NCBI GenBank assembly: GCA_000503915.1 | Contig: CP006915.1 | Location: 150,001-182,000 of the forward strand | Direction of reading: 5' to 3' | DNA: 32,000 nucleotides | From: Candidatus Saccharimonadota bacterium | GTDB lineage: Bacteria > Patescibacteriota > Saccharimonadia > Saccharimonadales > Saccharimonadaceae | Shown here: positions 5,552 through 30,400 of the stretch, piece after piece | How the letters are laid out: every line of letters begins with the position of its first letter | Numbering within the stretch: the first letter of the stretch is position 1 | Position numbers and translations under genes: made by a program | The notes under the pieces: model-generated | Told to the model about the DNA's origin: nothing | The model's database searches: none | Seen by the model: only the letters and a program-made list of their open reading frames with translations

Positions 5552-5552
5552 A

Positions 5553-6726: not shown

Positions 6727-6735
6727 TGCTATACT
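6727..6735 (+). promoter_or_regulatory. Extended -10 TGcTATACT, 7 nt upstream of ATG 6743
   Basis: Sequence reads caTGcTATACTaaaagtaATG. It shares the TATACTAAAG motif with the promoters at 13055, 19153 and 26948. Confidence 0.5.
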
Positions 6736-6742
6736 AAAAGTA

Positions 6743-7132
6743 ATGAAACGACGTGGGTTTACCGTTATCGAGCTGCTAGTTGCGATCGTTCTGCTGACCA
6801 TTATCGGCACGGTTTTTTGGTACCAGAAGAACAATATCGAGGTAGCTGGTCGTGACGATAAGCGGAAAATTGCCGTCAATGCTATGTACTACGGTCTTGA
6901 GGAAGTTTACTACAAGCAGCACGGCTACTACCCACAGAAAGTCGAGAAGAATACGCTTGCTTCTGTCGATAATTCCCTTTTAAAAGATCCTCGTGGCACC
7001 ACGATCGGTTCAGCGGATTCAGACTATCGCTACGAGGCGAAAAACTGTACCGATACAAAATGTAAAAGCTATACGCTCCGTACAATCCTCGAAAACGAAG
7101 CGGACTACGTCAAAAATAGCCGCCACCAATAA
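6743..7132 (+). CDS. Prepilin-type N-terminal cleavage/methylation domain protein (minor pilin-like)
   Basis: MKRRG|FTVIELLVAIVLL... gives a class III signal with Glu5 in a 129-aa protein. The longer ORF-track start (6521) lacks support. Confidence 0.8.
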   Translation: MKRRGFTVIELLVAIVLLTIIGTVFWYQKNNIEVAGRDDKRKIAVNAMYYGLEEVYYKQHGYYPQKVEKNTLASVDNSLLKDPRGTTIGSADSDYRYEAKNCTDTKCKSYTLRTILENEADYVKNSRHQ

Positions 7133-15519: not shown

Positions 15520-16059
15520 CTAATTGATCCAAAGAAGCCAGTTGTTTTCCGTCAGATACCACCCAAATGAGTAGTAATACACCCCGCCATCAAAACCACT
15601 ACCACAGCTAGCTTGCGCTGTGCCAGAAGTCGTCGTTGAATTACCTGATTCGCTCCGATATATAAATACTGTCCCGGATTTACTTTTGGCCGCTACCGCA
15701 TACGCGGGAGATCCTGATTTGAGACCTTCGCAGTACCATAGATTATCCTGAGTGAGAAGATAGGCAGATTTTGTCGGCGAGAAAGTAACGCCTTGGAAAT
15801 ACCGGCCGCTTCCGTTGCTTCGCATTCCGGCCGGAGGCACACCGTCAATTTCAACTTCACGAAGCTTAATCTTCTTCACTAATGAATTCACATCAGACTG
15901 GATAGCTGCGTCATTGGTACGATTTTGAATGCCATTATACGCCACGATGGTGATGGCTGCCAAAATTGCAATGACAACGATTACAATCAGAAGCTCGACG
16001 ATAGTGAAACCCCGCGACTGGTGGCTATCTCTATAATCTAGAGTGCCCACGCAGCCCAT
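15520..16059 (-). CDS. Type IV pilin-like protein (prepilin N-terminal methylation domain)
   Basis: Sequence ...SRG|FTIVELLIVIVVIAILAAITIVAYNGIQNR. Overlaps the upstream pilin by 22 nt. GTG 16050 is an alternative start. Confidence 0.82.
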   Translation of the reverse strand: MGCVGTLDYRDSHQSRGFTIVELLIVIVVIAILAAITIVAYNGIQNRTNDAAIQSDVNSLVKKIKLREVEIDGVPPAGMRSNGSGRYFQGVTFSPTKSAYLLTQDNLWYCEGLKSGSPAYAVAAKSKSGTVFIYRSESGNSTTTSGTAQASCGSGFDGGVYYYSFGWYLTENNWLLWIN

Positions 16060-16526
16060 ACCCCTGTATTTGACAACCCCGTTTGCACGGTCGAATCAGT
16101 TCCGTAGGTGATTCCAACGACATTACAAATGGGCGTGGCACTCATTGAAATATTTCCGAGATTACCAATGCCTTTTGAAGAAGTGTAATATACTGTACCC
16201 GACTTGGAGCGACCGGCAAATACATACTTATCACTGGCACTGGTCTGGGTGCAGTAATAAAGATTGTAGTAACTTGTATTGTACGCTGATTGACTCGCCC
16301 GCACTCCAAGCGTAGATAGCTCTGAGACAGCTACTGGGTACCTTCCATTATCAACGTTGAACAGCTCGGTTTTCTTCGAATAATTTGCTAGGTCTGTCTG
16401 AACGGCGGTATCATTCGCTCGATTTTGAATGCCATTGTACGCCACGATGGTGATTGCTGCCAAAATCGCGATCACCACGATGACGATCAGCAGTTCGACG
16501 ATAGTGAAACCTTTTTGATACCGCAT
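16038..16526 (-). CDS. Type IV pilin
   Basis: MRYQKG|FTIVELLIVIVVIAILAAITIVAYNGIQNR, 162 aa, immediately downstream of comEC. Confidence 0.88.
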   Translation of the reverse strand: MRYQKGFTIVELLIVIVVIAILAAITIVAYNGIQNRANDTAVQTDLANYSKKTELFNVDNGRYPVAVSELSTLGVRASQSAYNTSYYNLYYCTQTSASDKYVFAGRSKSGTVYYTSSKGIGNLGNISMSATPICNVVGITYGTDSTVQTGLSNTGVWAAWAL

Positions 16527-16565: not shown

Positions 16566-18020
16566 TTACTCCACAAGGTTAGTATCTCGTAGGCTCAGTC
16601 GCGTACGCCACCACATATACATTCCAAGGCATAGTATTCCCGCATACATCAGTAGCGCCTGCCAGCCAGAGATGCTTATTTCCGTCTTCGCCCATGGCAA
16701 GTCGGCCATATACGTCGCAACACTCGTCATGTAGTGAAGAAGGAGGGTAGCCGGCATGCCGACAATCACCGCGAACGCAGGAATTGTTATTACCCCAACG
16801 CCAGCAATAAATGTCAGTAACATAGCGAGCGGCACCAAAGGCAGCACCAGCAGGTTGGCGATAATCGCCACATTACTGACGTAGCCAAAAGTGATGATCA
16901 AGATAGGTAGTGTGCACAACCAGGCTGCCATTGTTTCGCCTAGAATTTGTCGGACAGTGCCTGGTTTTTCTGGGCCAAAGAAGTATGCCTGTAATAAAGG
17001 AGCGAGTAACATAACGCCACCAAATGCTGCAAAGCTGAGCTGCCAGCCGACGTCGCCCCATGCGTAGCTCGGGTTAAACAGAACAGTCGTAGCGACGGCG
17101 ATGCTCAGCAGGATCACCGGGTGGAATTTACGACCGTAGTACCATGCTAGTAGGCCAAGCCCCGCCACTAACCCAGCACGACTCATACTAGGGCTAAGGC
17201 CAGTAACAGCGACAAAGGCAGCTATGAGACTGCCCGACATCAGTGCAGCCAGATACTTAGACACGCGGGCAAACAACCGACGGGCAAGCCGTACCAAGAT
17301 CGTCAGGTTATAGCCACTAGCAACAACGATATGGGTCAATCCGGCTGCCTGCAGTGCGTTATCCAAATCCGAAGGCAAATTACGCCGCTGCCCCACCAAG
17401 TAGCCAACACCCAGACTAGCTTCTGGCTCTGGAATTGCTCTTCTGACTGCATCGCTGAACCAATTCCGCACGACAAGTGCCACATCGCCCGGTTCTGCTC
17501 GCTCGACTTTCTGTATATCTGTCCGGTACATTGCCCCAGCAAAAGTCCCGAAGCCCTTTTGCAATTTTCCTTCCGCTACTATGCGGTCACTACGCCAGAT
17601 TTCTCCCTCGTCACTCACCGTTACCCACAACGTTCCGGGCAGCAAGTGATCGCCAAAATGTATATCTCTTAACCGCAGCACCGCGTTACCCTGCTTGTCG
17701 ACATCCATATCTTCACTCACGGTCGCCGACAGTTGAATGGTCTTTTCGTATAGTCCGTCGTAAGCGTGCAACGAGACCTGCTCAATCTGCCCGCGCCATA
17801 ATCCGACAAGCAGACCTCCCACTATTGCTACCGGCAGCATAAAGACTTGCTGTTTATAGATGGCAACCAGACCCAGCATGACGCCAGTAAGCAACCACGA
17901 TACCGAGGTAAACCACCATGGCACCACGGGTGCAAGCACTACCCCGCCAAAGACACCGGCGCCCGCCAGACAGATGTGCCACGACGCATGAACCGAGCGG
18001 CGAAGGTAGTACCACTTCAT
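16566..18020 (-). CDS. comEC: ComEC/Rec2 DNA internalization channel, short form (no metallo-beta-lactamase domain)
   Basis: Polytopic membrane protein with an OB-like N-terminal insert and the competence-domain motif AGLTHIVVASGYNLTIL. Start ATG 18020 lies behind TATACT. The ORF-track extension to 18074 runs through a terminator hairpin. Confidence 0.85.
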   Translation of the reverse strand: MKWYYLRRSVHASWHICLAGAGVFGGVVLAPVVPWWFTSVSWLLTGVMLGLVAIYKQQVFMLPVAIVGGLLVGLWRGQIEQVSLHAYDGLYEKTIQLSATVSEDMDVDKQGNAVLRLRDIHFGDHLLPGTLWVTVSDEGEIWRSDRIVAEGKLQKGFGTFAGAMYRTDIQKVERAEPGDVALVVRNWFSDAVRRAIPEPEASLGVGYLVGQRRNLPSDLDNALQAAGLTHIVVASGYNLTILVRLARRLFARVSKYLAALMSGSLIAAFVAVTGLSPSMSRAGLVAGLGLLAWYYGRKFHPVILLSIAVATTVLFNPSYAWGDVGWQLSFAAFGGVMLLAPLLQAYFFGPEKPGTVRQILGETMAAWLCTLPILIITFGYVSNVAIIANLLVLPLVPLAMLLTFIAGVGVITIPAFAVIVGMPATLLLHYMTSVATYMADLPWAKTEISISGWQALLMYAGILCLGMYMWWRTRLSLRDTNLVE

Positions 18021-18026
18021 GAAGTT

Positions 18027-18032
18027 AGTATA
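18027..18032 (-). promoter_or_regulatory. -10 box TATACT 6 nt upstream of the comEC ATG (leaderless-type)
   Basis: Minus strand reads ggctgTATACTaacttcATG. Confidence 0.5.
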
Positions 18033-18046
18033 CAGCCACAATACAA

Positions 18047-18079
18047 GAAAAATGACCTGCGATCCGCAGGTCATTTTTC
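18047..18079 (-). terminator. Strong hairpin terminator closing the tRNA locus (bidirectional in form)
   Basis: GAAAAATGACCTGCG-GAT-CGCAGGTCATTTTTC forms a 15-bp perfect stem with U-runs on both strands. It starts 2 nt after the outer tRNA-like CCA. Confidence 0.85.
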
Positions 18080-18107: not shown

Positions 18108-18127
18108 ATTCGATCCTAAACTTTGGA
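18108..18127. repeat. Inverted-repeat arm flanking tRNA-Lys (trailer; includes discriminator + CCA)
   Basis: Plus strand attcgatcctaaactttgga versus the reverse complement of 18202-18221, attcgataataaactttgga: 18/20 identical. Confidence 0.9.
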
Positions 18128-18200
18128 GGGTCCAGTGGGGCTTGAACCCACGACACCCTGCTTAAAAGGCAGGTGCTCTAACCAGCTGAGCTATGGACCC
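18124..18200 (-). tRNA. tRNA-Lys (anticodon UUU), CCA encoded
   Basis: Hand-folded cloverleaf GGGTCCA-TA-GCTC-AGCTGGTTA-GAGC-A-CCTGC-CTTTTAA-GCAGG-GTGTC-GTGGG-TTCAAGC-CCCAC-TGGACCC-T-CCA. All four stems are perfect. Confidence 0.93.
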
Positions 18201-18227: not shown

Positions 18228-18364
18228 TGAACCTACGACTCTCAGAAGTCCACTGGACTTCTTCGCCCTGCTTAAAAGGCAGGTGCCCCCTATCTGTCTG
18301 ACAGGACGGGCAGGTCTAACCAGCTGCCTGCCCGCCTTGCACGGCAGGCGGGAGCTATGAACCC
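18228..18364 (-). pseudogene. 5' part of the outer tRNA-Lys-like gene (acceptor 5' strand through mid T-loop) with three hairpin insertions
   Basis: Minus strand reads GGGTTCATAGCTC-[26 nt]-CAGCTGGTTAGA-[28 nt]-GCACCTGCCTTTTAAGCAGGG-[26 nt]-GTCGTAGGTTCA. The conserved blocks are identical or nearly identical to tRNA-Lys 18124-18200 and collinear with it. Whether it is a dead gene or a functional RNA is unknown. Confidence 0.7.
18327..18352. repeat. 26-nt GC-rich hairpin element, copy 1 (inside the D-loop of the outer tRNA-like gene)
   Basis: Plus strand CCTGCCCGCC-TTGCAC-GGCAGGCGGG. Its inverted partner is 18635-18660 (23/26). A partial third copy, GGACGGGCAGG, lies at 18304-18314. Confidence 0.85.
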
Positions 18365-18603
18365 GTAATACGTTTCTGCAAAGCATCTCTTGCAGTGCCA
18401 CTGCGTTTTACAGTATGTTCACGTTTTATAGCAAGCTCTTTGGAATTATACGCTTCGTAGTAGATTAGTTCAAGAGGTCGCCTCTGTTTTGTAGCGGGAA
18501 CCTGTCCAGTGTTATGGAGCTCAAATCGCCTTCTAAGATCCGTCGTTTGTCCGTAATACAATTTACTATCTTTTTGTGAGCGTAAAACGTAAAAATAATA
18601 CAT
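18355..18603 (-). CDS. GIY-YIG nuclease family protein (small, UPF0213/YhbQ-like)
   Basis: 82 aa with YYFYVLRS...LYYGQTTDLRRRFELHN...YYEAY, which supply the GIY / YIG / Arg / Glu motifs. The last codons and the TAG stop lie inside the tRNA-like GGGTTCATAGCTC. Confidence 0.8.
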   Translation of the reverse strand: MYYFYVLRSQKDSKLYYGQTTDLRRRFELHNTGQVPATKQRRPLELIYYEAYNSKELAIKREHTVKRSGTARDALQKRITGS

Positions 18604-19146: not shown

Positions 19147-19152
19147 GCCTTT

Positions 19153-19161
19153 AGTATAGCA
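19153..19161 (-). promoter_or_regulatory. Extended -10 TGcTATACT 6 nt upstream of ATG 19146 (leaderless-type)
   Basis: Minus strand reads acTGcTATACTaaaggcATG. Confidence 0.5.
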
Positions 19162-19185
19162 GTATGGCCGATAAAACGCGGTAGC

Positions 19186-20091
19186 CTATGCGCCGATTTT
19201 GTCTTTTTTCGGACGGCGTTTGGCATTTTGCTCGATATACTCGATGATCTTCTCGGCTACATTGCGCTTAGTAATAAGCTCGGGGGTCTTAATGCTTGCA
19301 CTCGAGTTTACTTCGAGCACCAGCGGACCACGTTCCGAGCGCATCATGTCGACGCCACAGATAGGCAGACCCATGGCCTTCGCAGCCTTCAGAGCTGTCT
19401 TTCGCTCTTCTTCGGTCAGCTTCACCGGCACGCCTTCACCACCTTGGTGAGTGTTGCTACGAAAATCGCCGTCCAGGCTTTGGCGCTTGACGCTCGCGAC
19501 CACGCGGCCACCAACGACTAATGCACGGATATCGGTACCGGCTGATTCTTTGATAAATTCTTGCACCAAAAAATTCACGCCTTCGACATAGAAAGCCTGC
19601 ATTACGGCCTTGGCTGCCTTCGGGGTTTCAGCTAGTACTACACCGTTACCGTGAGTACCGCGTGCTACCTTAATAATCAGCGGTGTACCGCCGGCAAGCT
19701 CGATAATGTCATCGAAACTAGCTGACTCACGGGCAAAAACGGTCTTTGGAATGCCGACTCCCGCTTTTGCCAGCACCTGATAAGCACGGAGTTTATCGCG
19801 TGAACGATTAATCGCCAGTGATGTCGCCGTCGTGAACGACCCTTGCGCCTCAAATTGGCGCACAATCGCGGTACCGTATTTGGTGTAGCTCTGAGCAATC
19901 CGTGGTATTATTGCATCAAAATGGCCGAGGCTCTCACCTTTGTAGCGCACTACTGAGTTATTTTTTTCAATTGCCGTATAGGCATCCTTATACTTGATGA
20001 TCTTGACTTCGTGGCCTCGCTTCACCACCTCCTCTTTGAGACGCTTGGTGGTGTAGTTTCCTGGTCCATTGCTTAAAATCGCGATTTTCAT
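19186..20091 (-). CDS. rimK: Ribosomal protein S6--L-glutamate ligase RimK (ATP-grasp)
   Basis: 301 aa, collinear with E. coli RimK from memory (MKIAILS...HFDAIIPRI...GTHGNGVVLAE...DIRALVVGG...GDFRSNTHQGG...GVDMMRSERGPLVLEVN). Confidence 0.92.
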   Translation of the reverse strand: MKIAILSNGPGNYTTKRLKEEVVKRGHEVKIIKYKDAYTAIEKNNSVVRYKGESLGHFDAIIPRIAQSYTKYGTAIVRQFEAQGSFTTATSLAINRSRDKLRAYQVLAKAGVGIPKTVFARESASFDDIIELAGGTPLIIKVARGTHGNGVVLAETPKAAKAVMQAFYVEGVNFLVQEFIKESAGTDIRALVVGGRVVASVKRQSLDGDFRSNTHQGGEGVPVKLTEEERKTALKAAKAMGLPICGVDMMRSERGPLVLEVNSSASIKTPELITKRNVAEKIIEYIEQNAKRRPKKDKIGA

Positions 20092-20568
20092 TTATTCGTT
20101 CTCCAGTTCAGATTGTAATTCTTCAAACCGCACTTGATCATTCACCGATAATTTCTTCGAGCCATGCTGCACATCAACAATGAACTTACCAGCTAATGTA
20201 TTACGTCCAATTAAAATCGGAAACGCTTGGGTTTGACGATTCGCTAACGTACATTTTGTACGAACTCTTCTTCCCTTTAATTGTAACGTAATAGGAATCA
20301 AATAACGAACTTCTTTGTGTCCAGTTGAGTTTGCAACAACACGTTTTTTATAGCTTTTACTATGAAATAATTGTCCTGTGTAGAATGGCGAGTCTTTACC
20401 AAAAAACGACCATGATAAAATGCCATCTTCTTCAGATAGACTGCTCGCCCATATAGCTGTAGTTCGTGCACCGGTGTCAATGCGTGCTGGCACCTTCTTT
20501 TGATTTGTTGGCACAATCCAAACGTATTCTAGGCGACCAATGATTAATTTAGATTTTTGCTTGCTCAC
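20092..20568 (-). CDS. Retropepsin-like aspartic peptidase, DUF785 / RimB-like (historically annotated 'putative ATP-dependent zinc protease')
   Basis: 158 aa with GTG start. The DTGA motif (ARIDTGARTT) lies at aa 31-34. The stop abuts the rimK start with 0 nt gap. Confidence 0.65.
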   Translation of the reverse strand: MSKQKSKLIIGRLEYVWIVPTNQKKVPARIDTGARTTAIWASSLSEEDGILSWSFFGKDSPFYTGQLFHSKSYKKRVVANSTGHKEVRYLIPITLQLKGRRVRTKCTLANRQTQAFPILIGRNTLAGKFIVDVQHGSKKLSVNDQVRFEELQSELENE

Positions 20569-21454
20569 CGATCAATTCCTTCAGCATTTCCGCATACTTT
20601 TCTAGCTTCTCTTCCATAAATGAACCTGATGAAACTTGTGGAGCTTGATTTACCTCTAAAATATACGGTGTCTGCGTCTTTGCATCCAAAATAATGTCAA
20701 CGCCAGCCACTTCCAGCTTTTCTATTCTACTTGCCTCTACACACATATTGAGGAGCTTCTGGTCAAATGATGATAAGTCAATCAGCTCCGCCGTGCCGCC
20801 TTTTGAGGTATTGTTTAGATATTCACCCTGTCCGGCGGTTCGCTTAATCACTAATACGGGTCTAAAATTAAATACGAGCACTCGATAATCGCCTTTATTC
20901 GGGATGAGTTCTTGCAACACAAACTTCGTGTTGTCATGCTTTGCCAGAATATCCTGTAGCTCTGCCCGCGAGCTTACGGCATAGTTCTTCTCACCCTTAA
21001 ATCCATGGTTGTCTTTGACAACTGCCTTTGGTGCAAATTCATCAAAACGCCGAATCATCTCATCGTGATTACCAAATAACGTGTGAGGCACAGGAAGGTT
21101 AACCGACCAGTGAAGGAAAGATGCACTCATCTTATCAAGTGTTGGGCGATTTAAGTACGAGTCTATATACTTTACCCCCTTCTTTTCGCAATATATCGTA
21201 ATTGCTCGGGCTTCTTCGATGAAAGTACTGACATGGCGAAATACGACCAAGTCAAAATCTGCTACATCAAAAAGTTTAGTAGGGTGATAAATTCGTGCAC
21301 TATCAGTAGACACATCAAAAAAAAGCTCGTCAATATCGCTGCATTCCACCTCTATAGCATCATGCAGTTGCTCCGCCAGACGTTTGGCAAATGTAAATGA
21401 CTTTGCGTCATTACTCCTGTCTCTGTTGTGATGGAGCAATAGGGTTTTCTTCAT
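20549..21454 (-). CDS. Second ATP-grasp ligase, RimK-related
   Basis: 301 aa. The C-terminal half has ATP-grasp motifs (KGDYRVLVF, SKGGTAELIDL, AGVDIILD...YILEVNQAPQ). Its end overlaps the next gene by 20 nt. Confidence 0.68.
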   Translation of the reverse strand: MKKTLLLHHNRDRSNDAKSFTFAKRLAEQLHDAIEVECSDIDELFFDVSTDSARIYHPTKLFDVADFDLVVFRHVSTFIEEARAITIYCEKKGVKYIDSYLNRPTLDKMSASFLHWSVNLPVPHTLFGNHDEMIRRFDEFAPKAVVKDNHGFKGEKNYAVSSRAELQDILAKHDNTKFVLQELIPNKGDYRVLVFNFRPVLVIKRTAGQGEYLNNTSKGGTAELIDLSSFDQKLLNMCVEASRIEKLEVAGVDIILDAKTQTPYILEVNQAPQVSSGSFMEEKLEKYAEMLKELIGEQAKI

Positions 21455-21460
21455 ACGTTT

Positions 21461-21469
21461 ATTATAACA
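21461..21469 (-). promoter_or_regulatory. Extended -10 TGtTATAAT 6 nt upstream of ATG 21454 (leaderless-type)
   Basis: Minus strand reads aaaaaTGtTATAATaaacgtATG. Confidence 0.55.
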
Positions 21470-21499
21470 TTTTTTGCATTAATATTCAATGGTCTACCT

Positions 21500-22879
21500 T
21501 TATACACGTAGTGATATGTCTTTGAAAAGCTCTGCAGCTTCAGGATCCATCGGGTTAAACTGCGCGGAAAGAACCCAGCGCAGCTTTTCTCGCCGTTGCT
21601 CTTCCGGTAAGGCCTTTATGCTATTAAGCCAGCTTTTCGACAGCTGATCGCCATCACTATATGACTTGTCGCGGGCATCGACTGCATTCCCTCGAGTTGT
21701 TCGCAACATCGTCTGATATGCTGAGACTTTTGCCTCTCGTATGTCTTTGGCTGTTTCTGCTCCCGATATCATAGCTTGTCGGGGCCACATTATCTCAAAC
21801 GTTTCTCTGAAATCACGCCGTTCACCTCCTATGTCGAGCCCAAGTTGAAGACCAAGTGATACATAGTAGGCAGATCCGGCTTGAGTATCTTTCCCAGTAA
21901 TAATTGACTCGATAGCCTTACATAGCCCCTCTTCGAAAGCAAGATTTGTTTTAGATGGTAAGCGATGGGCAGCATTTGGCTGCTCATCGGCGTTATTTGC
22001 TCTCAGGCAGTGTGTTGCTTCATGCAACGGGAGTGGTTTTAGTCGTGCCCCTGTAAACGGTGGTCTATTTCGACCTACATCTATTGTACGATGTGCATGG
22101 TTCTCCTCGGCTTGTTTGCCTTCTGTAAATCGGGAGCGCCATCCTTTTCCACTGAGAGAAACTGCATCCAGAGCATTGTCAAAGTATGGTAGTACCCTAT
22201 CTACGGGTACAGACGCGGGGATTTCTTGCGCCAAGAATTTTTCTAAACCAGGAAGTATAACGGTCAGATCACCCTTGAACATTTCCATAGTTTCTGGGTC
22301 TAGCGTCTCGAATTCAAAGTCCACGGGGACTTTAACGTCTTGTGTACGCTGAAGAAATTGCGTTGCGACTGCTCGTTTTCTTCCGGTAATTGCAGAGTTC
22401 CGAGTCCATGTACGTGCCCGCGTATAGTCTTGGGAAAAGTAGTAGGCGAACCTGTCAGGATCTAGCTGACCAAATATCTCAAAGGTTACGTCCCCTGCCT
22501 CCTGTCTCAATACTTCAGCTGAATCAATCGCCGTTTCAGCCATCATCCTACGGATCTTCTGATGACGATTGAGCTCCATGAGTTTAGATTCTATGACCTC
22601 AAAAATATGGTCTTTCTCTTCTTCAGATCCCTCCACATACTCAACATCTTCAAGGAGGTTAACAAGCGAATATATATACTGGTGCAGCGTCTCCGATTCA
22701 AGCTGAGGAAACTCCAGCCGAGGCCACCGCTGGGATGAATACATAAAATCTTCGAGTGCTTCTCGACGTAATTTAGCATCTGATACAGAGTGCTTACGTA
22801 CAGCATACGGCACATTCGATGGTATTTTTGTTATCGGAAATGTTTGATATTTATCAACAATCCCTGCGATTGTGACCAT
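21500..22879 (-). CDS. HExxH zinc metallopeptidase, DUF1704 / QEGLA-motif / MATCAP-like putative carboxypeptidase
   Basis: 459 aa. HEATH lies at aa 286-290 (codon for H286 at 22022-22024), with FEEGLC about 30 aa downstream as the gluzincin-type third ligand. The family assignment is from memory, not from a search. Confidence 0.55.
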   Translation of the reverse strand: MVTIAGIVDKYQTFPITKIPSNVPYAVRKHSVSDAKLRREALEDFMYSSQRWPRLEFPQLESETLHQYIYSLVNLLEDVEYVEGSEEEKDHIFEVIESKLMELNRHQKIRRMMAETAIDSAEVLRQEAGDVTFEIFGQLDPDRFAYYFSQDYTRARTWTRNSAITGRKRAVATQFLQRTQDVKVPVDFEFETLDPETMEMFKGDLTVILPGLEKFLAQEIPASVPVDRVLPYFDNALDAVSLSGKGWRSRFTEGKQAEENHAHRTIDVGRNRPPFTGARLKPLPLHEATHCLRANNADEQPNAAHRLPSKTNLAFEEGLCKAIESIITGKDTQAGSAYYVSLGLQLGLDIGGERRDFRETFEIMWPRQAMISGAETAKDIREAKVSAYQTMLRTTRGNAVDARDKSYSDGDQLSKSWLNSIKALPEEQRREKLRWVLSAQFNPMDPEAAELFKDISLRV

Positions 22880-22903: not shown

Positions 22904-24004
22904 CTAGCCGAGGAAGCCTTTTTTTGCGCCGCCAAACTGTTTGAGTAAATCCTTCTGCTTTTTACTCAGCTTAGTCGGCGTATCAACGATAATCGAGACG
23001 ATATGGGCACCGCGGCGGTCACTACGGAGATGTGGCACACCGTGACCGGATAGCTTGAAGTCAGTTCCGCTCTGGGTACCGGCCGGGACTTTCATGCGAA
23101 CCTTGCCATCAACCGTCTCGACATCGATTTCCGTCCCGAGCGCTGCATCAATCATATCGACGTGCTCTTCACTGAGGATAAGGTCGCCTTCACGGGTGAA
23201 TTTCTTGTGTGCTTTGACGCGGAGGTGGATATACAGATCGCCGCGTGCACCGTTGGCGATCGCTTCACCGCGATCCTTCAGACGGATTGTGGCGCCGTCA
23301 TCGACTCCGGCCGGTACTTTCAGCGTAATCGTCTGCTTGCGACGCTCGGTACCCTTGCCCTGACAGACTGTACAGACCTTTTCCGGTACTTTGCCGCGGC
23401 CTTTACACGTCTCACAGGTGACGGCCTGCTGGATAGCGCCAAACATCGTGTTCATAACGCGCGTTTGCTGGCCGGCGCCGTGACAGGTCGGACAGGTTCT
23501 TAATTCATGGCCAGGCTCAACGGTTGTACCGTGACAGTGTGAGCATTCGTCGTCCATGTCAAGTGCTAGGTCGCGCTCAATGCCAAAAACCGCTTCCTCA
23601 AATGTCAGCTGAATACTAGTCTCGACGTCACGACCGCGACGCGGTCCTTGCTGTGCGTTGCCCCCACCGCCAAAGAACTGACTAAAGATATCACCGAGCC
23701 CGCCGTCACCGAAATTGAACTCGAAGCCTTGACCGCCATTGAAGCCCTCAAACGGGTTGCCACCACTGTAGCCACCGCCGCTCGCACCGCCGACACCAGC
23801 ATGGCCAAACTGATCATAGCGCTGACGCTTCTGGGCGTCTTTAAGCACCTCGTAAGCTTCGTTGATTTCTTTAAACTTTGCCTCATCACCACCTTCTTTG
23901 TCCGGGTGGTGCTTGACGGCAGCCTTTCGGAAAGCCTTTTTAATCTCATCAGCTGAGGCATCTTTAGCTACGCCAAGTACCTCATAATAATCTCTTTTAG
24001 CCAT
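22904..24004 (-). CDS. dnaJ: Molecular chaperone DnaJ (type I: J domain, G/F region, four CxxCxGxG zinc fingers)
   Basis: Sequence MAKRDYYEVLGV...HPDK, with CSHCHGTT, CPTCHGAG, CETCKGRG and CTVCQGKG. Confidence 0.97.
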   Translation of the reverse strand: MAKRDYYEVLGVAKDASADEIKKAFRKAAVKHHPDKEGGDEAKFKEINEAYEVLKDAQKRQRYDQFGHAGVGGASGGGYSGGNPFEGFNGGQGFEFNFGDGGLGDIFSQFFGGGGNAQQGPRRGRDVETSIQLTFEEAVFGIERDLALDMDDECSHCHGTTVEPGHELRTCPTCHGAGQQTRVMNTMFGAIQQAVTCETCKGRGKVPEKVCTVCQGKGTERRKQTITLKVPAGVDDGATIRLKDRGEAIANGARGDLYIHLRVKAHKKFTREGDLILSEEHVDMIDAALGTEIDVETVDGKVRMKVPAGTQSGTDFKLSGHGVPHLRSDRRGAHIVSIIVDTPTKLSKKQKDLLKQFGGAKKGFLG

Positions 24005-24116: not shown

Positions 24117-24135
24117 CTGTTACTATTGTAAAAAA

Positions 24136-24162
24136 TTAGCACTCGAATTACAAGAGTGCTAA
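24136..24162 (-). promoter_or_regulatory. CIRCE (HrcA operator) upstream of dnaJ, with an embedded -35
   Basis: TTAGCACTC-N9-GAGTGCTAA is a perfect match. On the minus strand the spacer reads TTGTAATTC, giving -35 TTGTAA, then 17 nt, then -10 TACAAT (24125-24130). Confidence 0.9.
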
Positions 24163-24668
24163 TTTACTTTCACAACGTAATTCACACCATAGCCGGTATC
24201 CATAGTCGCCGCACAAGTTCCATCAGTTTCATTGGTTGCGGCCGGCAACGTCTCCAGGGTTACATACAAGTAAGTTCCTAAGCCGCACGATTCCTTATAA
24301 TATGCGAAGCATCTTGTACTGCCTGAAGCGCACGCGACTGCGCCTGATGGATCCTTCAAATCACTGGAGATATAGCCGGCATCCTTCAAACAATCGTTCA
24401 TTGATTTGGGGGTATACAAGTAGTTAAACCACCACTTACCATCTCCGTTAGCCCCACAACCACTGCCCGTTTCCATATAATCTCCGTGGTCTACGTACCA
24501 AAGTTTCAGACCCTTTGCGATGGCTGCCAGATCTGATCGTCTATCAGCATCACGGGCCCGTGCTTGCATACCGTTATACGCCACTACCGTAATGGCAGCC
24601 AAAATAGCAATCACGACAATTACAATCAAGAGTTCGACAATCGTAAAACCGCTTGTGGTTTTTCTCAT
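24159..24668 (-). CDS. Type IV pilin (Cys-rich C-terminal subfamily)
   Basis: MRKTTSG|FTIVELLIVIVVIAILAAITVVAYNGMQ. The C-terminus ...LYVTLETLPAATNETDGTC... is paralogous to 30926-31447 and 31549-32000. ATG 24668 lies behind TGcTACACT. Confidence 0.88.
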   Translation of the reverse strand: MRKTTSGFTIVELLIVIVVIAILAAITVVAYNGMQARARDADRRSDLAAIAKGLKLWYVDHGDYMETGSGCGANGDGKWWFNYLYTPKSMNDCLKDAGYISSDLKDPSGAVACASGSTRCFAYYKESCGLGTYLYVTLETLPAATNETDGTCAATMDTGYGVNYVVKVN

Positions 24669-24694
24669 AGTATTTAGTGTAGCACGACGCCAGG

Positions 24695-25198
24695 TTAGTA
24701 CTGCCAAGCCTGCCAAACGCCGTGGGTTGCATCAGATATCCAGCCGGCAGAGGGGCAAATGAAAGATTTCGAAGTACTCGGGACATTCGCAGCCTGCTCA
24801 TATCCGATGAACCAAAGTACATAAAAGTTTCCCCTTGAGCCATCACTACAACCATACGACGTACCCGCCGGTCTAATATATCTATAGTAATGATTCGCAT
24901 CGTTCAATGGATCAACCGGTAGATTACTCATATACGGTTTTAGCGCAGTTGCAAAGGTGGTCCAGTTGGTATTCGTACTCTCATAATATCCACCACCGCT
25001 GGTTGGGTAATCATTGTTGTCAATCTTATACAGTTCAAGAGCCTTTTGAATCTCTGTGCTATCATTGCTTCTTCGATTGTCCCTAGCCCGAGCCTGAATA
25101 CCGTTATACGCCACAGCAGTAATAGCGGCCAGGATAGCGATCACAACGATGACGATCAGGAGTTCAACGATCGTGAAGCCGCTTACGGTTTTTCTCAT
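24695..25198 (-). CDS. Type IV pilin (VDP subfamily)
   Basis: MRKTVSG|FTIVELLIVIVVIAILAAITAVAYNGIQ. Paralogous to the frameshifted gene 30413-30926 (...LPVDPLN...). ATG 25198 lies behind TGgTATACT. Confidence 0.88.
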   Translation of the reverse strand: MRKTVSGFTIVELLIVIVVIAILAAITAVAYNGIQARARDNRRSNDSTEIQKALELYKIDNNDYPTSGGGYYESTNTNWTTFATALKPYMSNLPVDPLNDANHYYRYIRPAGTSYGCSDGSRGNFYVLWFIGYEQAANVPSTSKSFICPSAGWISDATHGVWQAWQY

Positions 25199-25220
25199 AA
25201 ACTTCAGTATACCACCTCGT

Positions 25221-26870
25221 CTAAAAGTTTTTGCGGATGTGCGAAAAGCTATAATCCCAGGTGGCATCAGTCTTTTTGTGCGGGTTGAAAATATTATCTG
25301 GGTCGTAGAGTTTTTTGATATCTTTCATGACACCAAGGATTTTTTTACCATACATTGCCTCAAGCCACGGACCGCGCACCAGGCCATCGTTGTGTTCACC
25401 GGAGATTGAACCTTTGTATTTGAGAACCAGCTCATTGACTTCCTTTTGAGCTGGCTTTAGCTTGGCTCGCTCTTTCGGGTCTTCGATTTTCATCAGCGGA
25501 ATCACATGGAAGTTACCATCGCCAAGGTGCCCGGCAATCGTCGCGAGTAATTTGTACTTGCGGATAATCCTCCGCAGTTTTGGTAAAAATTCGCTGAGGT
25601 ATTCCGGGTTGACCACGAAGTCATCAATAAATGGCGCGGTGTGCTTGTCTTTCACTTTGCTCCGAAGGAGATTGAAACTTTCCCGCCGCATGAGCCAAAA
25701 CTTTCGCGACTTGGCTTCGGTGTCGTCTTCTTCGAGATAGGTAAATGTCTTAAACTTTTGCAAACTCAGTTTTGTATTATGAATCTTCGCGTTGATTTCG
25801 GCCTGAGTATCACCGGTAAATTCAATAAGGAGAATCAGCTTTGGCACGCCAAGTCCGAGTGCAAGGCCGTCGGGGATAAGCGCGATAACCATCTTTAGCC
25901 ATTCCCACAGTCCAAGTCGTGGCAAGAAAGCAAAGACGAATTTAAAGCTCAGCCACAGCGTAGCGTCATCAAAACATTCAAACGTGGCCGGTTTTTTCGC
26001 GAGGATCGCCGGGATGATATCTCCCAGCTTGTCGATATCGCGCATATAGCAAACCAGTGTACCTTCGTATTTTGGCTTTGGCACGAGTTTCACTGTGCCT
26101 TCGGTAATAATACCAAGCGTTCCCTGCGCACCCACAAACAGTTTCGTCAGGTCAAAGATACCAGTTTCGCGGTTCCAGACATTCCATAAATGATACCCCG
26201 TCGAATCTTTCGTTACATTCGGCTTGGCCGCTTGGACTTCATCATAATATTCTTCGAGGAGTTCAAACGTTTTCTTATATAAATCACCCTCGAAATCACC
26301 CTGCGCCATCTTACGTATCAGGCCGGCTTTATCGAGCGGCTTTATCGTATATTCATTTCCATCGGCAAATACCATTTTTAGTTCGGTCACAAAATTATCC
26401 GTCTTGCCATACTCAAGTGATTTTTCACCACCGGAATTATTACTCATAATGCCGCCCATGCCCGCAAGATCGCGGCTGGCCGGGTAACTCGGTAGCAGCG
26501 AGCCGTGCTTGAGCGTCTCGACTTCGAAGTCCTTATACATCATGCCTGGCTGAACTGTCGCCTGCTTCGCCGACACTTTTTCAAGTTTTGTCATGTGCCT
26601 TGAAACGTCGAGGATAATCGACTCACCTATCGCGGCTCCCGACATATCGGTTCCACGCGAACGCATGGTGATACTGAGCTCGGGATGAGATTTTTTATGT
26701 TTGCTCACGAACTTTACTGCCGCTTTTATATCACCAGCATCCTTTGGAAAACCAACGACCTGAGGTTTCAGTTCAAACAAGCTCGCGTCGTGACTGTAAA
26801 ACTCACGCGTCTCCTCGCTGGTATCGAGCTCGCCTTTGAAGATTCTTGAAAGTTCTTTTTGTAAATCCAT
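25221..26870 (-). CDS. FAD-linked oxidase (GlcD / D-lactate dehydrogenase family)
   Basis: 549 aa. FAD_binding_4-like N-terminal half (GTDMSGAAIG, SNNSGGEKSLEYGKT). C-terminal motifs GHLGDGNFH and GSISGEHNDGL. Confidence 0.8.
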   Translation of the reverse strand: MDLQKELSRIFKGELDTSEETREFYSHDASLFELKPQVVGFPKDAGDIKAAVKFVSKHKKSHPELSITMRSRGTDMSGAAIGESIILDVSRHMTKLEKVSAKQATVQPGMMYKDFEVETLKHGSLLPSYPASRDLAGMGGIMSNNSGGEKSLEYGKTDNFVTELKMVFADGNEYTIKPLDKAGLIRKMAQGDFEGDLYKKTFELLEEYYDEVQAAKPNVTKDSTGYHLWNVWNRETGIFDLTKLFVGAQGTLGIITEGTVKLVPKPKYEGTLVCYMRDIDKLGDIIPAILAKKPATFECFDDATLWLSFKFVFAFLPRLGLWEWLKMVIALIPDGLALGLGVPKLILLIEFTGDTQAEINAKIHNTKLSLQKFKTFTYLEEDDTEAKSRKFWLMRRESFNLLRSKVKDKHTAPFIDDFVVNPEYLSEFLPKLRRIIRKYKLLATIAGHLGDGNFHVIPLMKIEDPKERAKLKPAQKEVNELVLKYKGSISGEHNDGLVRGPWLEAMYGKKILGVMKDIKKLYDPDNIFNPHKKTDATWDYSFSHIRKNF

Positions 26871-28378: not shown

Positions 28379-30277
28379 CTACTTTTTATCGTCGATGACT
28401 TCGCCCTCGACCGGTTCGTCTTTATCCGACTTTTTGTCGCCGTCTTCTGAGGCAGGTGCTTCCTCTTTTGATGCGGCTTCGTACAGCTTGGCGCCGATCG
28501 GCATCAGGATGTCATTCAGAGCCTTGACAGCTGCTTCGAGTGCATCTTTATCGGCCGTATCGTCGTTTTTCACTTTCTTAGCGTCTTCGACGGCTTTTTC
28601 GATTGCCTTCTTGTCGTCATCCGAGATCTTATCTTTATGCTCATCTGGCAGCTTTTCAGCTTGGTAAATAGCGTTTTCCAGCTGGTTACGTGTTTCCACC
28701 GCTTCACGCTTTTTCTTGTCTTCATCAGCGTGGGCTTCGGCTTCTTTTTGTGCTTTTTCGATATCGTCTTTAGACATATTGCCAGAATCCTGGATGGTAA
28801 TTGACTGCTCTTTACCAGTGCCTTTGTCTTTGGCGGTTACGTTCAAGATACCATTAGCATCAAGGTTGAAGGTGACTTCAACCTGTGGCACGCCGCGTGG
28901 TGCCGGGGCAATGCCATCGAGGATAAAACGGCCAAGTGACTTATTGTCAGCAGCCATTTCACGCTCACCTTGCAGCACGTGGATTTCCACCTGCGGCTGG
29001 TTGTCGGCAGCAGTCGAGAAGGTTTCAGACTTGCTGGTAGGAATTGTTGTATTGCGCTCGATCAACTTGGTCGTCACACCACCCATGGTTTCGATACCGA
29101 GTGATAGTGGCGTTACATCAAGAAGGAGTACGTCTTTGACGTCACCTTGCAGTACGCCACCCTGGATAGCCGCACCGACAGCCACGACTTCGTCAGGGTT
29201 CACACCCTTGAGCGGATCTTTACCAAAGATTGTTTTGACCTTTTCAACAACCGCTGGCATACGGGTCATCCCACCAACCAGCACGATCTCGTTGATTTCA
29301 CTTGCCTTGACGTCGGCGTCTTTGAGGGCCTTTTCGACCGGACCGACCAGGCGGTCGATCAGATCTTTGACGAGATCTTCGAGCTTACTGCGGGTCAGCT
29401 TGTACTCAAAGTGCTTCGGGCCATCGGCATCAGCCGTGATGAACGGCAAGTTGATTTCGTATTCTGTCGTCGTAGAAAGTTCTTTCTTCGCCTTCTCGGC
29501 CTCATCTTTGAGGCGCTGCATGGCGGCTTTGTCGCTCTTTAGATCGACACCTTCCTCGTTTTTAAAGACATCGAGGAAGTGGTTGACGATGCGGTTGTCG
29601 AAGTCTTCACCACCAAGGTGCGTATCACCATTGGTTGAGCGTACTTCGAACACACCGTCGCCAAGTTCGAGAATGGAAACGTCAAAGGTACCACCACCGA
29701 GGTCAAAGACCGCAATTTTTTCTTCCTTCTTGCCTTCGAGTCCATAGGCCAATGCGGCCGCAGTCGGCTCGTTGATAATTCGCTTAACTTCAAGGCCAGC
29801 AATCTTGCCGGCGTCTTTGGTTGCCTGACGCTGTGAATCGTCAAAGTAGGCTGGGACAGTGATGACGGCCTCGGTGACTTTTTCACCTAGGAAGCTTTCG
29901 GCATCTGCCTTGATTTTTGAGAGAATCATTGCCGAGACTTCTTCTGGCGTGTAGTCTTTGTCACCCATTTTTACTGCGACACCGTCGCCTTTTTTGACAA
30001 TCTCATAAGGCATAATATCGTGGTCTTTTTGCACTTCATGGTCTGAGAATTTACGACCGATCAAGCGTTTTACCCCGTAAATTGTATTTTCAGCGTTTGT
30101 CACGCGCTGGCGCTGCGCTACTTGACCGACCAGGCGCTCACCTTTCTTATTTATAGCAACGACACTTGGCGTCGTGCGGTTACCTTCAGCATTAGCAATA
30201 ACCTCCGGCTTGCCAGCCACCATATAGGCAAATGCCGAGTTGGTTGTACCGAGGTCGATTCCGATAATTTTACCCAT
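28379..30277 (-). CDS. dnaK: Molecular chaperone DnaK (Hsp70)
   Basis: 632 aa starting [14 protein letters not shown]..., with full-length Hsp70 similarity. AGGAGG (30285-30290) lies 7 nt upstream. Confidence 0.98.
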
Positions 30278-30325: not shown

Positions 30326-30352
30326 TTAGCACTCCTCGCTGGACAGTGCCAA
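30326..30352 (-). promoter_or_regulatory. Second, degenerate CIRCE-like element in the dnaK 5' leader
   Basis: TTAGCACTC-N9-CAGTGCCAA. The left arm is perfect and the right arm matches 7/9. Confidence 0.5.
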
Positions 30353-30373: not shown

Positions 30374-30400
30374 TTAGCACTCTCATGTCAAGAGTGCTAA
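30374..30400 (-). promoter_or_regulatory. CIRCE (HrcA operator) upstream of dnaK, with an embedded consensus -35
   Basis: TTAGCACTC-N9-GAGTGCTAA is a perfect match. The minus-strand spacer TTGACATGA contains TTGACA (30386-30391), followed by 17 nt and then -10 TACACT (30363-30368). Confidence 0.92.

Follow-up and report, generated by a model that had tools for sequence, protein, structure and literature searches.

What would a reduced-genome member of the Saccharibacteria keep RimK and RimB for, along with an additional ligase and a distant relative of the eukaryotic carboxypeptidase MATCAP, directly after dnaJ? The question is raised by a locus in a 32,000-nt stretch of contig CP006915.1, hereafter the window, which was compared with related loci.

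Gene order and transcription units

The features of the locus are arranged as follows:

24136..24162, no strand assigned: CIRCE (HrcA operator) inverted repeat, TTAGCACTC-N9-GAGTGCTAA, upstream of dnaJ
24125..24153, minus strand: promoter-like site TTGTAA-17-TACAAT, 9/12 consensus matches, overlapping CIRCE
22904..24004, minus strand: dnaJ, 366 aa; Pfam DnaJ, DnaJ_C and DnaJ_CXXCXGXG
21500..22879, minus strand: gene A, 459 aa; divergent gluzincin of the MATCAP/DUF1704/QEGLA family, predicted C-terminal exopeptidase
21461..21489, minus strand: internal promoter-like site TTGAAT-17-TG-TATAAT, 10/12 in a consensus scan plus the TG extension
20549..21454, minus strand: gene B, 301 aa; divergent RimK-family ATP-grasp ligase (K' type)
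20092..20568, minus strand: gene C, 158 aa, GTG start; RimB-like retropepsin-type aspartic peptidase
19186..20091, minus strand: gene D, 301 aa; RimK, alpha-L-glutamate ligase

The sequence-only reading had described four co-directional genes, and all four open reading frames were found on the minus strand from 22879 to 19186, at the positions and spacings it gave: genes A and B are separated by 45 nt containing TGTTATAAT, genes B and C overlap by 20 nt, and the gap between genes C and D is 0 nt, the TAA of C being read directly before the ATG of D. The intergenic gaps are too small to hold a precursor-peptide ORF, in agreement with the claim that there is none. Of the proposal that the genes form one operon, the tight packing stands, but a single self-contained operon does not. 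Gene A starts 24 nt past the end of dnaJ, with no predicted terminator in this gap, and a perfect match to CIRCE (chance expectation 0.02 per window) lies 5' of dnaJ; therefore, there are probably two transcription units, dnaJ-A and B-C-D, the first under a heat-shock operator.

CIRCE is found directly 5' of dnaJ in every scanned dnaJ-holding related locus, a comparison that took in all those examined except L102. The dnaJ gene itself is 67–82% identical across related loci, lies upstream of the module in every related locus that extends far enough and, as a conserved upstream neighbor, probably supplies transcription of gene A. The promoter calls for dnaJ and gene B are consensus matches only; for the site at 24125..24153, the overlap with CIRCE makes a role as the start of the dnaJ-A transcript probable. 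The -10 box of the internal site stops 6 nt short of the start codon of gene B (ATG), and the B-C-D mRNA is possibly leaderless. Analogous sites precede an ATP-grasp gene in two related loci (L014 and L001).

Two ligases and two peptidases

By sequence, gene D is an orthologue-grade RimK. It consists of Rimk_N and RimK domains, scores 240 bits against TIGR00768 (cut-off 143) and 316 bits against NF007764 (cut-off 331), and matches the solved RimK structures of Pseudomonas (7qys, 1e-87) and E. coli (4iwx, 2e-81) over its full length, which justifies the earlier label of a bona fide rimK. The window contains no S6 gene. [quoted passage not shown] It is Glu in 56/82, with at least two Glu in 44/82 and at least three in 30/82, and typically reads ...KEEE.

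Judged from its residues, gene B is a divergent RimK-family ligase that is catalytically intact. It matches PF08443 (2.5e-15) and, with 79.6 bits, falls below the TIGR00768 cut-off of 143.4; its best PDB matches are RimK proteins at ~1e-7. Whether this second ATP-grasp protein retains its catalytic residues had been named as a check, and the alignment revealed all of them, the equivalents of K100, K141, D248, E260 and N262 being invariant. Gene B is not of the RloC type: the search with TIGR02291, also among the proposed checks, gives an E-value of 0.022. It is ~24% identical to gene D and most resembles the ATP-grasp portion of the fusions with RimB seen in relatives. Among published positions that contact poly-Glu, S7, R8 and S14 are not conserved between B and D, whereas R64, R189 and N262 are kept.

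In characterised rim systems, RimB acts as an endopeptidase that cuts only poly-Glu tails, and its catalytic residue is D31 (PMC11957791). Published work states that it requires at least five glutamates to cut, and a tail of about four residues remains after its action (PMC10092738). Gene C, described earlier as a DTGA protein of the DUF785/RimB-like type, matches PF05618 above cut-off (2.2e-14), and the DUF785 structures 2pma and 9g59 align to it across the DTGA motif, which lies in ...ARIDTGARTT with the DTG aspartate at residue 31. It scores 35.9 bits against the RimB model NF052261, far below the equivalog cut-off of 200; NCBIfam RloA3 is its second-best match (8.6e-9). No signal peptide is found in gene C, and its sequence identifies it as a predicted cytosolic RimB-type retropepsin.

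In gene A, the HEATH (HExxH) and downstream FEEGLC motifs reported for the 459-aa protein are both present, at residues 286–290 and 315–320 (EEG at 316–318), followed by a C-terminal block, R393/R396/G397...D404..Y407..G410; the family usually has HExxxH where gene A has HExxH. Direct scans against Pfam and NCBIfam found nothing above curated thresholds, so the proposed kinship with DUF1704 and MATCAP holds by remote homology and not by direct matching. Close homologues of gene A number only 6 among 5.8 billion proteins, and one of these six matches PF08014. An exhaustive search with a profile of this close family retrieved 1058 relatives; in a sample of 49, PF08014 was matched by 36 and TIGR02421 by 37. 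Alignment of gene A with bona fide PF08014 proteins by hhalign gave a probability of 100% (E 3.5e-40, 419 columns), and a wider family profile matches human MATCAP (7z5g, E 1.8e-6) across the HExxxH, EEGLA and RG..KD.Y.G blocks. The AF2 model of gene A (pLDDT 86) gave weak matches to gluzincin carboxypeptidases in Foldseek, and MATCAP was absent among the 50 matches listed. The model of a positional orthologue (P0211, pLDDT 91.6) has human MATCAP 7z5g as its sole significant PDB match (E 5e-5). On this homology, gene A is classified as a divergent MATCAP/DUF1704 gluzincin.

Function of the module

MATCAP-like, RimB-like and RimK genes occur together in 10 distinct Saccharibacteria loci, all but one of which have at least one accessory ATP-grasp gene (number 0 to 2, of varying type). 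The recurring block comprises dnaJ, the MATCAP-like gene, the accessory ATP-grasp gene or genes, the RimB-like gene and RimK, in varying order. The A proteins of these loci are 23–45% identical to that of the window, or too diverged for tblastn. Synteny in relatives, on which the sequence-only reading had made its proposal depend, is thus present, and its recurrence in 10 distinct loci with diverged A proteins argues against chance juxtaposition. With the homology of gene A and the residues of gene B, this makes three tests that the reading had set for its own refutation, and none went against it. Conservation also extends to the neighbors comEC, yebC and a 161-aa gene, and Saccharibacteria genomes are broadly syntenic, so that conserved order within this single phylum is weaker evidence of coupling than it appears.

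We favor, at a probability of roughly 55%, an extended RimK/RimB (‘rim’) C-terminal polyglutamylation system, conserved in Saccharibacteria and located at the end of a CIRCE/HrcA-controlled dnaJ unit. RimK would add alpha-linked glutamates to the Glu-rich C-terminus of S6, a dimer of the RimB-like protein would cut long tails internally, and the MATCAP-like carboxypeptidase would take off the remaining glutamates singly, by analogy with its eukaryotic relatives on tubulin tails. As carboxypeptidases, MATCAP/TMCP enzymes take Tyr and Glu off C-termini and trim polyglutamate chains (PMC10499314). With gene A carried on the heat-shock transcript of dnaJ and B-C-D served by a separate promoter, stress may shift the balance between writing and erasing toward erasure. 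Gene B may physically partner the RimB-like protein, and could prime or elongate tails differently from RimK or serve a second acceptor. A point against this reading is that a RimBK hybrid of D. psychrophila failed to glutamylate heterologous S6 (PMC11957791), so that accessory ligases may have other targets. For the bacterial MATCAP family, which is uncharacterised, the module would provide a first function open to testing.

A rather unlikely account is that the product is a free polymer and not a protein modification: poly-alpha-L-glutamate, or a mixed acidic peptide, that serves as osmolyte, charge buffer or glutamate store. RimK and the accessory ligases would make it, and the RimB-like endopeptidase and MATCAP-like exopeptidase would degrade it, comparable to cyanophycin synthetase and cyanophycinase. 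RimK does make free poly-alpha-Glu, stimulated by RimB (PMC11957791), and the K0 ligases of five related loci (L003, L009, L013, L014, L102) resemble the ATP-grasp of cyanophycin synthetase (TIGR02068, 2e-65 and 6e-50); the window, however, is without a K0-type ligase. Among the genes that low salinity induces most strongly in Photobacterium are rimK and the QEGLA gene with its GshB-type neighbor (PMC10308900), which points to an osmotic role. Against a free polymer, the S6 genes of relatives mostly finish with a run of Glu suited to RimK, and RimK is 65–93% identical across related loci, far above A, B or C, as fits a conserved macromolecular substrate. The two-component tail or second substrate put forward by the sequence-only reading is, in our view, improbable. 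Here B would attach an amino acid that is not Glu, or act on some protein besides S6, and A would specifically remove that residue in a cycle resembling tyrosination/detyrosination atop glutamylation. The low identity of B to D, its score below the RimK-family cut-off, its changed poly-Glu contacts and the founding MATCAP activity, removal of a non-Glu terminal residue, would all suit such a scheme, but the sequence points to no other amino acid or acceptor, TMCP/MATCAP enzymes remove Glu as well, which makes a second residue type needless for explaining A, and the varying number and type of accessory ligases argue against a fixed two-step tail chemistry.

Gene A might also stand outside the rim system altogether, as a heat-shock-regulon peptidase co-transcribed with dnaJ for protein quality control or peptide recycling, its adjacency to B-C-D reflecting frozen gene order in small genomes. 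The CIRCE element, the short dnaJ-A gap, the separate promoter of B and the likewise syntenic flanks are compatible with this, as is one clade (L020, L103) in which the MATCAP-like gene lies elsewhere, unlinked to rimK. We consider this quite improbable: L003 and L009 have an ATP-grasp gene to either side of A, a K0-type ligase gene sits between A and the RimB-like gene in L013 and L014, and only 1 nt separates A from the next ligase gene in L021. The pairing recurs in a different phylum, in Vibrionaceae: a QEGLA/COG3930 gene adjoins a COG0189 (GshB/RimK-type) gene in Vibrio vulnificus (VV2_1203/1204; PMC3091676), and the corresponding pair of Photobacterium damselae (A0J47_RS17020/17025) is co-induced 27- to 38-fold (PMC10308900). 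Moreover, the sole characterised relatives of A trim acidic C-terminal tails (PMC10499314).

Comparison with known systems

The extended rim system proposed here resembles Pseudomonas RimABK (ligase, retropepsin-like endopeptidase and phosphodiesterase RimA) in its adjacent, co-directional rimB-like and rimK genes, the full-length RimK match, the Asp31 of gene C without a signal peptide and, as the likely substrate, a Glu-ended S6. It differs in lacking RimA and c-di-GMP input, in its position behind CIRCE-dnaJ, in the distance of gene C from the RimB equivalog and in two extras, the second ATP-grasp ligase and the MATCAP-like metallopeptidase.

RimBK hybrids such as Desulfotalea psychrophila DP2392 are known (PMC11957791), and among the related loci two independent kinds of fusion join the RimB-like domain to an ATP-grasp domain. 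In L003, L004, L006 and L009, proteins of 441–443 aa (C-K') have an N-terminal RimB-like and a C-terminal ATP-grasp domain, and are followed by a separate rimK where the contig extends, an arrangement that corresponds to the uncommon ‘rimBK plus rimK’ class (0.9% of accessions with rim genes; PMC11957791). The fusion in L102 (K0-C) instead places a cyanophycin-synthetase-like ATP-grasp N-terminally and the RimB-like domain C-terminally. In the window, the two domains are encoded apart and in reverse order, B before C. For RimBK, a MATCAP-like partner is without report so far.

Like the RloABC system of Pseudomonas aeruginosa (secreted retropepsins, a 7TM inactive transglutaminase and the ATP-grasp RloC), the window combines a peptidase of the retropepsin kind with an ATP-grasp protein related to RimK, but gene C is without a signal peptide, no membrane protein resembling RloB is present and gene B is not RloC-type. 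Gene A belongs to the same superfamily as the TIGR02421/QEGLA proteins, although it fails the model itself and has FEEGLC instead of QEGLA; for the Vibrionaceae pair, an adjoining RimB or canonical RimK is not reported.

The parallel with tubulin drawn by the sequence-only reading is apt, and stronger than first stated, since deglutamylation by enzymes of the MATCAP family has been published (PMC10499314). Gene A is a homologue of MATCAP/TMCP1-2 (KIAA0895L, KIAA0895) within the PF08014 superfamily; common to them are the zinc motif, EEG as the third ligand and the R..RG..D..Y..G block at the C-terminal side. Gene A differs in HExxH instead of HExxxH, in an identity so low that only profiles detect it, in the absence of a microtubule-binding region and in its predicted substrate, either a ribosomal protein or a free peptide; it would also act alongside an aspartic endopeptidase, for which the tubulin system has no counterpart. 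The logic common to both, as in TTL/TTLL versus MATCAP, is that acidic C-terminal tails are extended by ATP-grasp ligases and cut back by a MATCAP-type enzyme, including by deglutamylation.

Layout of the gene string and predicted roles of genes B, C and D

The four open reading frames claimed in the sequence-only reading are all found on the minus strand at the positions it had assigned to them, and the spacings it had described hold as well.

Genes of the four-gene string
22879..21500, minus strand: gene A, MATCAP-like protein, 459 aa
21454..20549, minus strand: gene B, divergent RimK-family ATP-grasp protein (predicted), 301 aa
20568..20092, minus strand: gene C, RimB-like protein (predicted), 158 aa, GTG start
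20091..19186, minus strand: gene D, RimK (predicted), 301 aa

The 45-nt gap between A and B holds the promoter-like sequence TGTTATAAT, the reading frames of B and C share 20 nt, and the TAA of C directly abuts the ATG of D (0-nt gap). The absence of a precursor-peptide ORF was likewise confirmed, as these intervals (45, -20 and 0 nt) are too small for one; a RiPP/graspetide cluster was rejected on the same grounds, with graspetide maturase models matching at 1e-3 or worse. In the related locus L014, a 37-aa ORF (MKKLMHNQDGLIPLLLVVLAVVVGIIVLVYMRVINAQ; 6634-6747) lies between the MATCAP-like and ATP-grasp genes; it was rejected as a precursor, being a hydrophobic peptide that resembles a single transmembrane segment and is not present in the window. 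Near the module lie three pilin-like genes (type IV pilin/pseudopilin, with N-terminal methylation motifs; 16038-16526, 24159-24716 and 24695-25267), comEC (16566-18074), tRNA-Lys(UUU) (18124-18200) and a small GIY-YIG nuclease gene (18355-18603), which is typical competence and pilus context for Saccharibacteria, with no evident link to the module.

Gene D had been called a bona fide rimK, a designation borne out by its full architecture (Rimk_N and RimK domains in Pfam and NCBIfam scans), a TIGR00768 score of 240 bits against a cut-off of 143.4, and end-to-end alignments with solved RimK structures: 7qys (Pseudomonas, E 1e-87), 5zct and 4iwx (E. coli, 2e-81). On the stricter S6-glutamate ligase equivalog NF007764 it scores slightly below the cut-off (316 versus 331 bits). 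The ATP/Mg and catalytic residues K100, K141, D248, E260 and N262 are present. Of the poly-Glu contact residues published for Pseudomonas RimK (PMC10092738), gene D keeps S7, R64, S68, R189 and N262, with Asn at position R8 and Thr at S14. From these features, gene D is assigned as RimK.

Gene B is classed, by its domain and alignment scores, as a divergent RimK-family ATP-grasp protein and is not to be filed as RimK. Its PF08443 RimK ATP-grasp domain is clear (2.5e-15, 57 bits versus a cut-off of 21) and its best PDB matches are RimK proteins, at around 1e-7, with a TIGR00768 score (79.6 bits) below the 143.4-bit cut-off. The suggested check against TIGR02291 gave no match (E 0.022, 13.8 bits versus a cut-off of 314), and gene B was rejected as an RloC-type ligase on this basis. 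When B and its orthologues were aligned with RimK (D) and with the fusion proteins found in relatives, K100, K141, Q177, D187, R189, R203, N213, D248, E260 and N262 (RimK numbering) proved invariant. Because all ATP/Mg and catalytic positions are invariant, gene B is not a dead paralogue; the refuting outcome that had been named, a second ATP-grasp protein lacking catalytic residues, did not occur. Of the poly-Glu contacts, B retains R64, R189 and N262, and the N-terminal contacts differ.

For gene C, the earlier 'DUF785/RimB-like' label survives at the family level: its PF05618 score of 54 bits is twice the cut-off (27), the DTGA motif is present and the gene adjoins rimK. On the narrower NCBIfam RimB equivalog NF052261 it is far below the cut-off (35.9 versus 200 bits), with RloA3 nearly equal at 35.3 bits. 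The Asp of the IDTGA motif is residue 31, the same position as D31 of RimB, which is experimentally essential and catalytic (PMC11957791). Since the motif begins 30 residues from the N-terminus, there is no space for a signal peptide. In this respect gene C is like RimB, which is cytosolic, and unlike the RloA proteases, which are secreted (PMC12239564); a secreted RloA-type protease was rejected for the same reason. Gene C is accordingly classified as a putative PF05618 RimB-like retropepsin of the cytosolic type.

Gene A and the MATCAP/DUF1704 superfamily

Assignment of gene A to DUF1704, proposed from its motifs, proved correct in terms of profile-level homology and failed at the curated thresholds. 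Direct Pfam and NCBIfam scans gave no match to PF08014 or TIGR02421 at E <= 0.1, the only return being a sub-threshold and irrelevant hit to Ppnp, and neither sequence nor small-profile searches matched the PDB. Homologues of A are scarce, with only six among 5.8 billion proteins, one of which (31% identical) reaches PF08014 at E 8.4e-6; a word-index search seeded with a 7-sequence alignment extended no further than the single-sequence search, and tblastn of a DUF1704 protein against plasmids gave no match. A profile search run exhaustively over 1.84 billion representatives retrieved 1058 relatives, of which 586 reach E <= 1e-10 and 72 reach E <= 1e-30. In a sample of 49 of these relatives, PF08014 is found in 36 and TIGR02421 (QEGLA) in 37. 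Alignment of the A family with 21 PF08014-positive proteins in hhalign returned a probability of 100% (E 3.5e-40, 419 columns), and a profile of 114 relatives of A matched human MATCAP (KIAA0895L, 7z5g) at E 1.8e-6, in blocks that correspond to the zinc motif, EEGLA and RG..KD.Y.G.

The active-site residues point the same way. The two motifs singled out in the sequence-only reading, like IDTGA in gene C, are present: HEATH, an HExxH zinc motif, lies at residues 286-290, and FEEGLC at 315-320 corresponds to the EEG(LA) motif, the source of the third metal ligand in the MATCAP family. The alignment of the 49 sampled sequences shows no variation at H286, E287, H290, E317, R396 and Y407; E317 is likewise invariant among the 114 relatives, where conservation of E316 is at least 90%. 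MATCAP carries an unusual HExxxH (PMC10499314), whereas gene A has HExxH; the longer form occurs in 86 of the 114 aligned relatives and the shorter in 19, which form the subclade of A, and both His and the catalytic Glu are invariant or near-invariant across alignments. The AlphaFold model of A (pLDDT 86, pTM 0.85) gave only weak Foldseek matches in the PDB, to DUF885 (3iuk, 2.3e-3) and M32 gluzincin carboxypeptidases, and MATCAP (7z5g, 7z5h, 7z6s) was not among the 50 matches listed. For this reason, we modeled P0211 in its place, a PF08014-positive protein from the same slot of the same four-gene arrangement in another Saccharibacterium (locus L021). The only significant PDB match of the P0211 model (pLDDT 91.6) is human apo MATCAP, with E 5e-5, probability 1.0 and a TM score of 0.37-0.44. 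We conclude from these profile and residue comparisons that gene A belongs, as a divergent member, to the MATCAP/DUF1704 superfamily, with a predicted carboxypeptidase activity.

Related loci and transcriptional organization

All seven genome matches (7/7) are Candidatus Saccharibacteria; the protein of the window itself is encoded on a contig of 845 kb. Synteny in relatives, on which the idea of a functional module depends, was confirmed: MATCAP-like, RimB-like and RimK genes occur together in 10 distinct loci, with at least one accessory ligase in all but one. Wherever the contig reaches upstream, the module is preceded by dnaJ, sometimes with one or two genes between dnaJ and A.

Gene order in related loci (square brackets and ~ mark fused genes; K', ATP-grasp type of gene B; K0, other accessory ATP-grasp type)
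L001, L021: as in the window
L003, L009: dnaJ, K0, A, [RimB-like~K'] fusion, RimK; L003 with an extra gene after dnaJ
L004, L006: dnaJ, A, [RimB-like~K'] fusion, ATP-grasp gene (RimK in L006; K'-type in L004, at the contig end)
L010: A, RimB-like, RimK
L013, L014: A, K0, RimB-like, RimK
L102: dnaJ, GNAT, A, [K0~RimB-like] fusion, RimK

Positions of K0 genes
L003: 6961-7908
L009: about 5001-5798
L013: 7659-8522
L014: 6784-7779
L102: 9443-10855

The gene between dnaJ and A encodes a GNAT acetyltransferase in L102 (7460-7966) and a sortase in L014; this slot takes insertions while A stays linked to the rim genes (the RimK/RimB glutamate-tail system). The K0 type is similar to the ATP-grasp domain of cyanophycin synthetase (TIGR02068, 2e-65) and to those of N-acetylglutaminylglutamine synthetase and GshAB, and the window has no K0 gene. 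The nearest kin of B and C are the ATP-grasp half and the N-terminal half of the fusions, respectively, and in L102 the K0 domain is fused N-terminally to the RimB-like domain. Independent fusion in two orders argues that the RimB-like protein and the accessory ligase would act as a complex, which echoes the published RimB-RimK interaction and RimBK hybrid proteins (PMC11957791).

Conservation is uneven along the string. Identity across loci is 65-93% for RimK and 67-82% for DnaJ, against 23-45% for A, 27-46% for B-type and 32-46% for C; L009 and the window, for example, share a RimK that is 93% identical, with A only 34% identical and a different architecture. GC3 in the window breaks at the same place, with 0.40, 0.43 and 0.31 in A, B and C versus 0.54 in D and 0.57 in both dnaJ and comEC. 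This suggests that A-B-C form a cassette within a stable frame, either exchanged or evolving much faster than that frame. Two caveats bear on the linkage: gene order is broadly shared among Saccharibacteria genomes, and in one clade the MATCAP-like (PF08014) gene is not beside rimK. It is found elsewhere (L020, 6001-7356; L103, 8001-9386), about 3.5 kb downstream of rpsF-ssb-rpsR-efp and after a convergent ychF, a placement that may be fortuitous or may point once more to S6. Outside this phylum, the COG3930 gene VV2_1203 of Vibrio vulnificus adjoins the COG0189 (GshB/RimK-type) gene VV2_1204 (PMC3091676), and in Photobacterium damselae low salinity induces the QEGLA gene A0J47_RS17025 27-fold together with its 'GshB' neighbour A0J47_RS17020 (38-fold) and rimK (52-fold) (PMC10308900). 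These Vibrionaceae pairs provide independent support, from another phylum, for a functional link between QEGLA and ATP-grasp proteins.

The string had been read as one operon; its genes are indeed tightly packed and co-directional, but their predicted control elements suggest a division in two.

CIRCE (HrcA operator) copies and dnaK
24136-24162: perfect CIRCE upstream of dnaJ, overlapping a promoter-like site
30326-30352: CIRCE upstream of dnaK
30374-30400: CIRCE upstream of dnaK
30277..28379, minus strand: dnaK, with its own CIRCE copies upstream

Two of the three CIRCE copies in the window are perfect (chance expectation, 0.02 per window), dnaJ and dnaK each have their own operator, and CIRCE lies immediately upstream of dnaJ in every scanned related locus that holds dnaJ. 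Between dnaK and dnaJ, over about 4 kb, lie two pilin-like genes, a gene for a FAD-linked oxidase and an unassigned 368-aa ORF on the plus strand. As the gap between dnaJ and A measures 24 nt and has no predicted terminator, gene A is probably heat-shock inducible via the dnaJ transcript. A separate promoter-like site, TTGAAT-17-TG-TATAAT, the best sigma-70-like site in the region, ends 6 nt upstream of the ATG of B. No Shine-Dalgarno sequence is visible ahead of B, suggesting that a B-C-D transcript would be leaderless; in L014 and L001, the ligase gene has a comparable promoter-like site in front of it. The string thus appears better described as two adjacent transcription units, dnaJ-A and B-C-D. 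Extended -10-like boxes at 19147-19185 (TGCTATACT) and 21455-21499 (TGTTATAAT) stop 6-8 nt short of the ATG start codons of a 161-aa membrane-protein gene and of gene B, respectively, both without a Shine-Dalgarno sequence, which suggests that this genome may commonly use leaderless mRNAs.

A proposed model for tail editing and its significance

RimK/RimB-controlled glutamylation of ribosomal protein S6 is a known bacterial means of retuning translation, and E. coli RimK extends the Glu-Glu C-terminus of S6. No rpsF was found in the window or in the module loci when S6 and S18 of E. coli were used as queries. The S6 of L020, which ends in ...DAKEEE, was used as a query and identified 80 related metagenome S6 genes, making 82 with L020 and L103, all from other genomes. 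Their C-termini end in Glu in 56 of 82 cases, in at least two Glu in 44 and in at least three in 30. As a proxy for the window genome, this set fits the E. coli RimK acceptor.

In the mechanism that we propose, RimK would write alpha-Glu tails on S6, and long tails would be cut by a dimer of the RimB-like protein. Published RimB requires a tail of about five glutamates and leaves one of about four (PMC11957791; PMC10092738); the remaining tail would be trimmed residue by residue by the MATCAP-like gluzincin, gene A. TMCP1 and TMCP2 act in this way on tubulin, where they take off Tyr and Glu at the C-terminus and make polyglutamate chains shorter (PMC10499314). The exo-eraser A would increase on heat shock, and gene B would be an active ligase bound to C. 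The broader reading, to which we give a probability of roughly 0.3, is that bacterial MATCAP/DUF1704 proteins are the ancestral exo-deglutamylase partners of RimK-type ligases in a stress-switched S6 'tail code', and that the tubulin pairing was inherited from it. Such a code, on S6 and perhaps on other proteins, would have RimK and the accessory ligase as its two writers; of its two erasers, the retropepsin would be endo-acting and the MATCAP-like enzyme exo-acting.

Three other explanations bear on the same genes. Metabolism of free poly-Glu would involve a chain not borne by a protein; the Glu-ended S6 set fits a protein acceptor, and we regard free poly-Glu metabolism as unlikely. Gene B might instead add a different residue, producing a two-residue tail, or serve a second substrate; its N-terminal contacts differ from those of RimK and its R64, R189 and N262 do not, and this explanation seems to us quite improbable. 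Lastly, A could be a heat-shock peptidase outside the rim system, kept in place by frozen synteny. Saccharibacteria genomes are generally syntenic, and the downstream 161-aa gene, comEC and yebC are likewise conserved. We consider this explanation quite improbable.

The significance of the S6 tail-editing reading lies in what it adds to known systems. To our knowledge, RimK/RimB glutamylation of S6 has been studied only in Proteobacteria, and we know of no function assigned to the bacterial relatives of MATCAP, a human detyrosinase/deglutamylase. A literature search found no paper joining RimK with MATCAP, or Saccharibacteria with RimK, and the survey of ATP-grasp amidoligase neighbourhoods by Iyer et al. 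(2009) may already mention peptidase partners of RimK; RimK, RimB and RimBK are already known, and the MATCAP-like partner, the second or third ligase and the CIRCE link are, among searchable papers, not described. The locus and its recurrence across Saccharibacteria place a MATCAP-like peptidase in a RimK/RimB cluster under a heat-shock operator, and offer a direct functional question for the bacterial MATCAP family, namely the trimming of alpha-Glu tails that RimB cannot finish. That four genes are spent on this module in genomes of <1 Mb suggests that tail editing matters for the physiology of these small-genome cells. If trimming occurs as proposed, a family of about a thousand sequence clusters would gain an annotation, and the rim pathway would gain both an exopeptidase step and a stress input. 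The ATP-grasp/MATCAP antagonism known from the tubulin code would also have a precedent in prokaryotes. Were the broader reading true, the eukaryotic code (TTL/TTLL versus MATCAP/TMCP) would have inherited a pre-existing bacterial ATP-grasp/MATCAP writer-eraser pairing. The module would be a prokaryotic parallel to the tubulin code, in which an ATP-grasp ligase is likewise set against a MATCAP-type enzyme.
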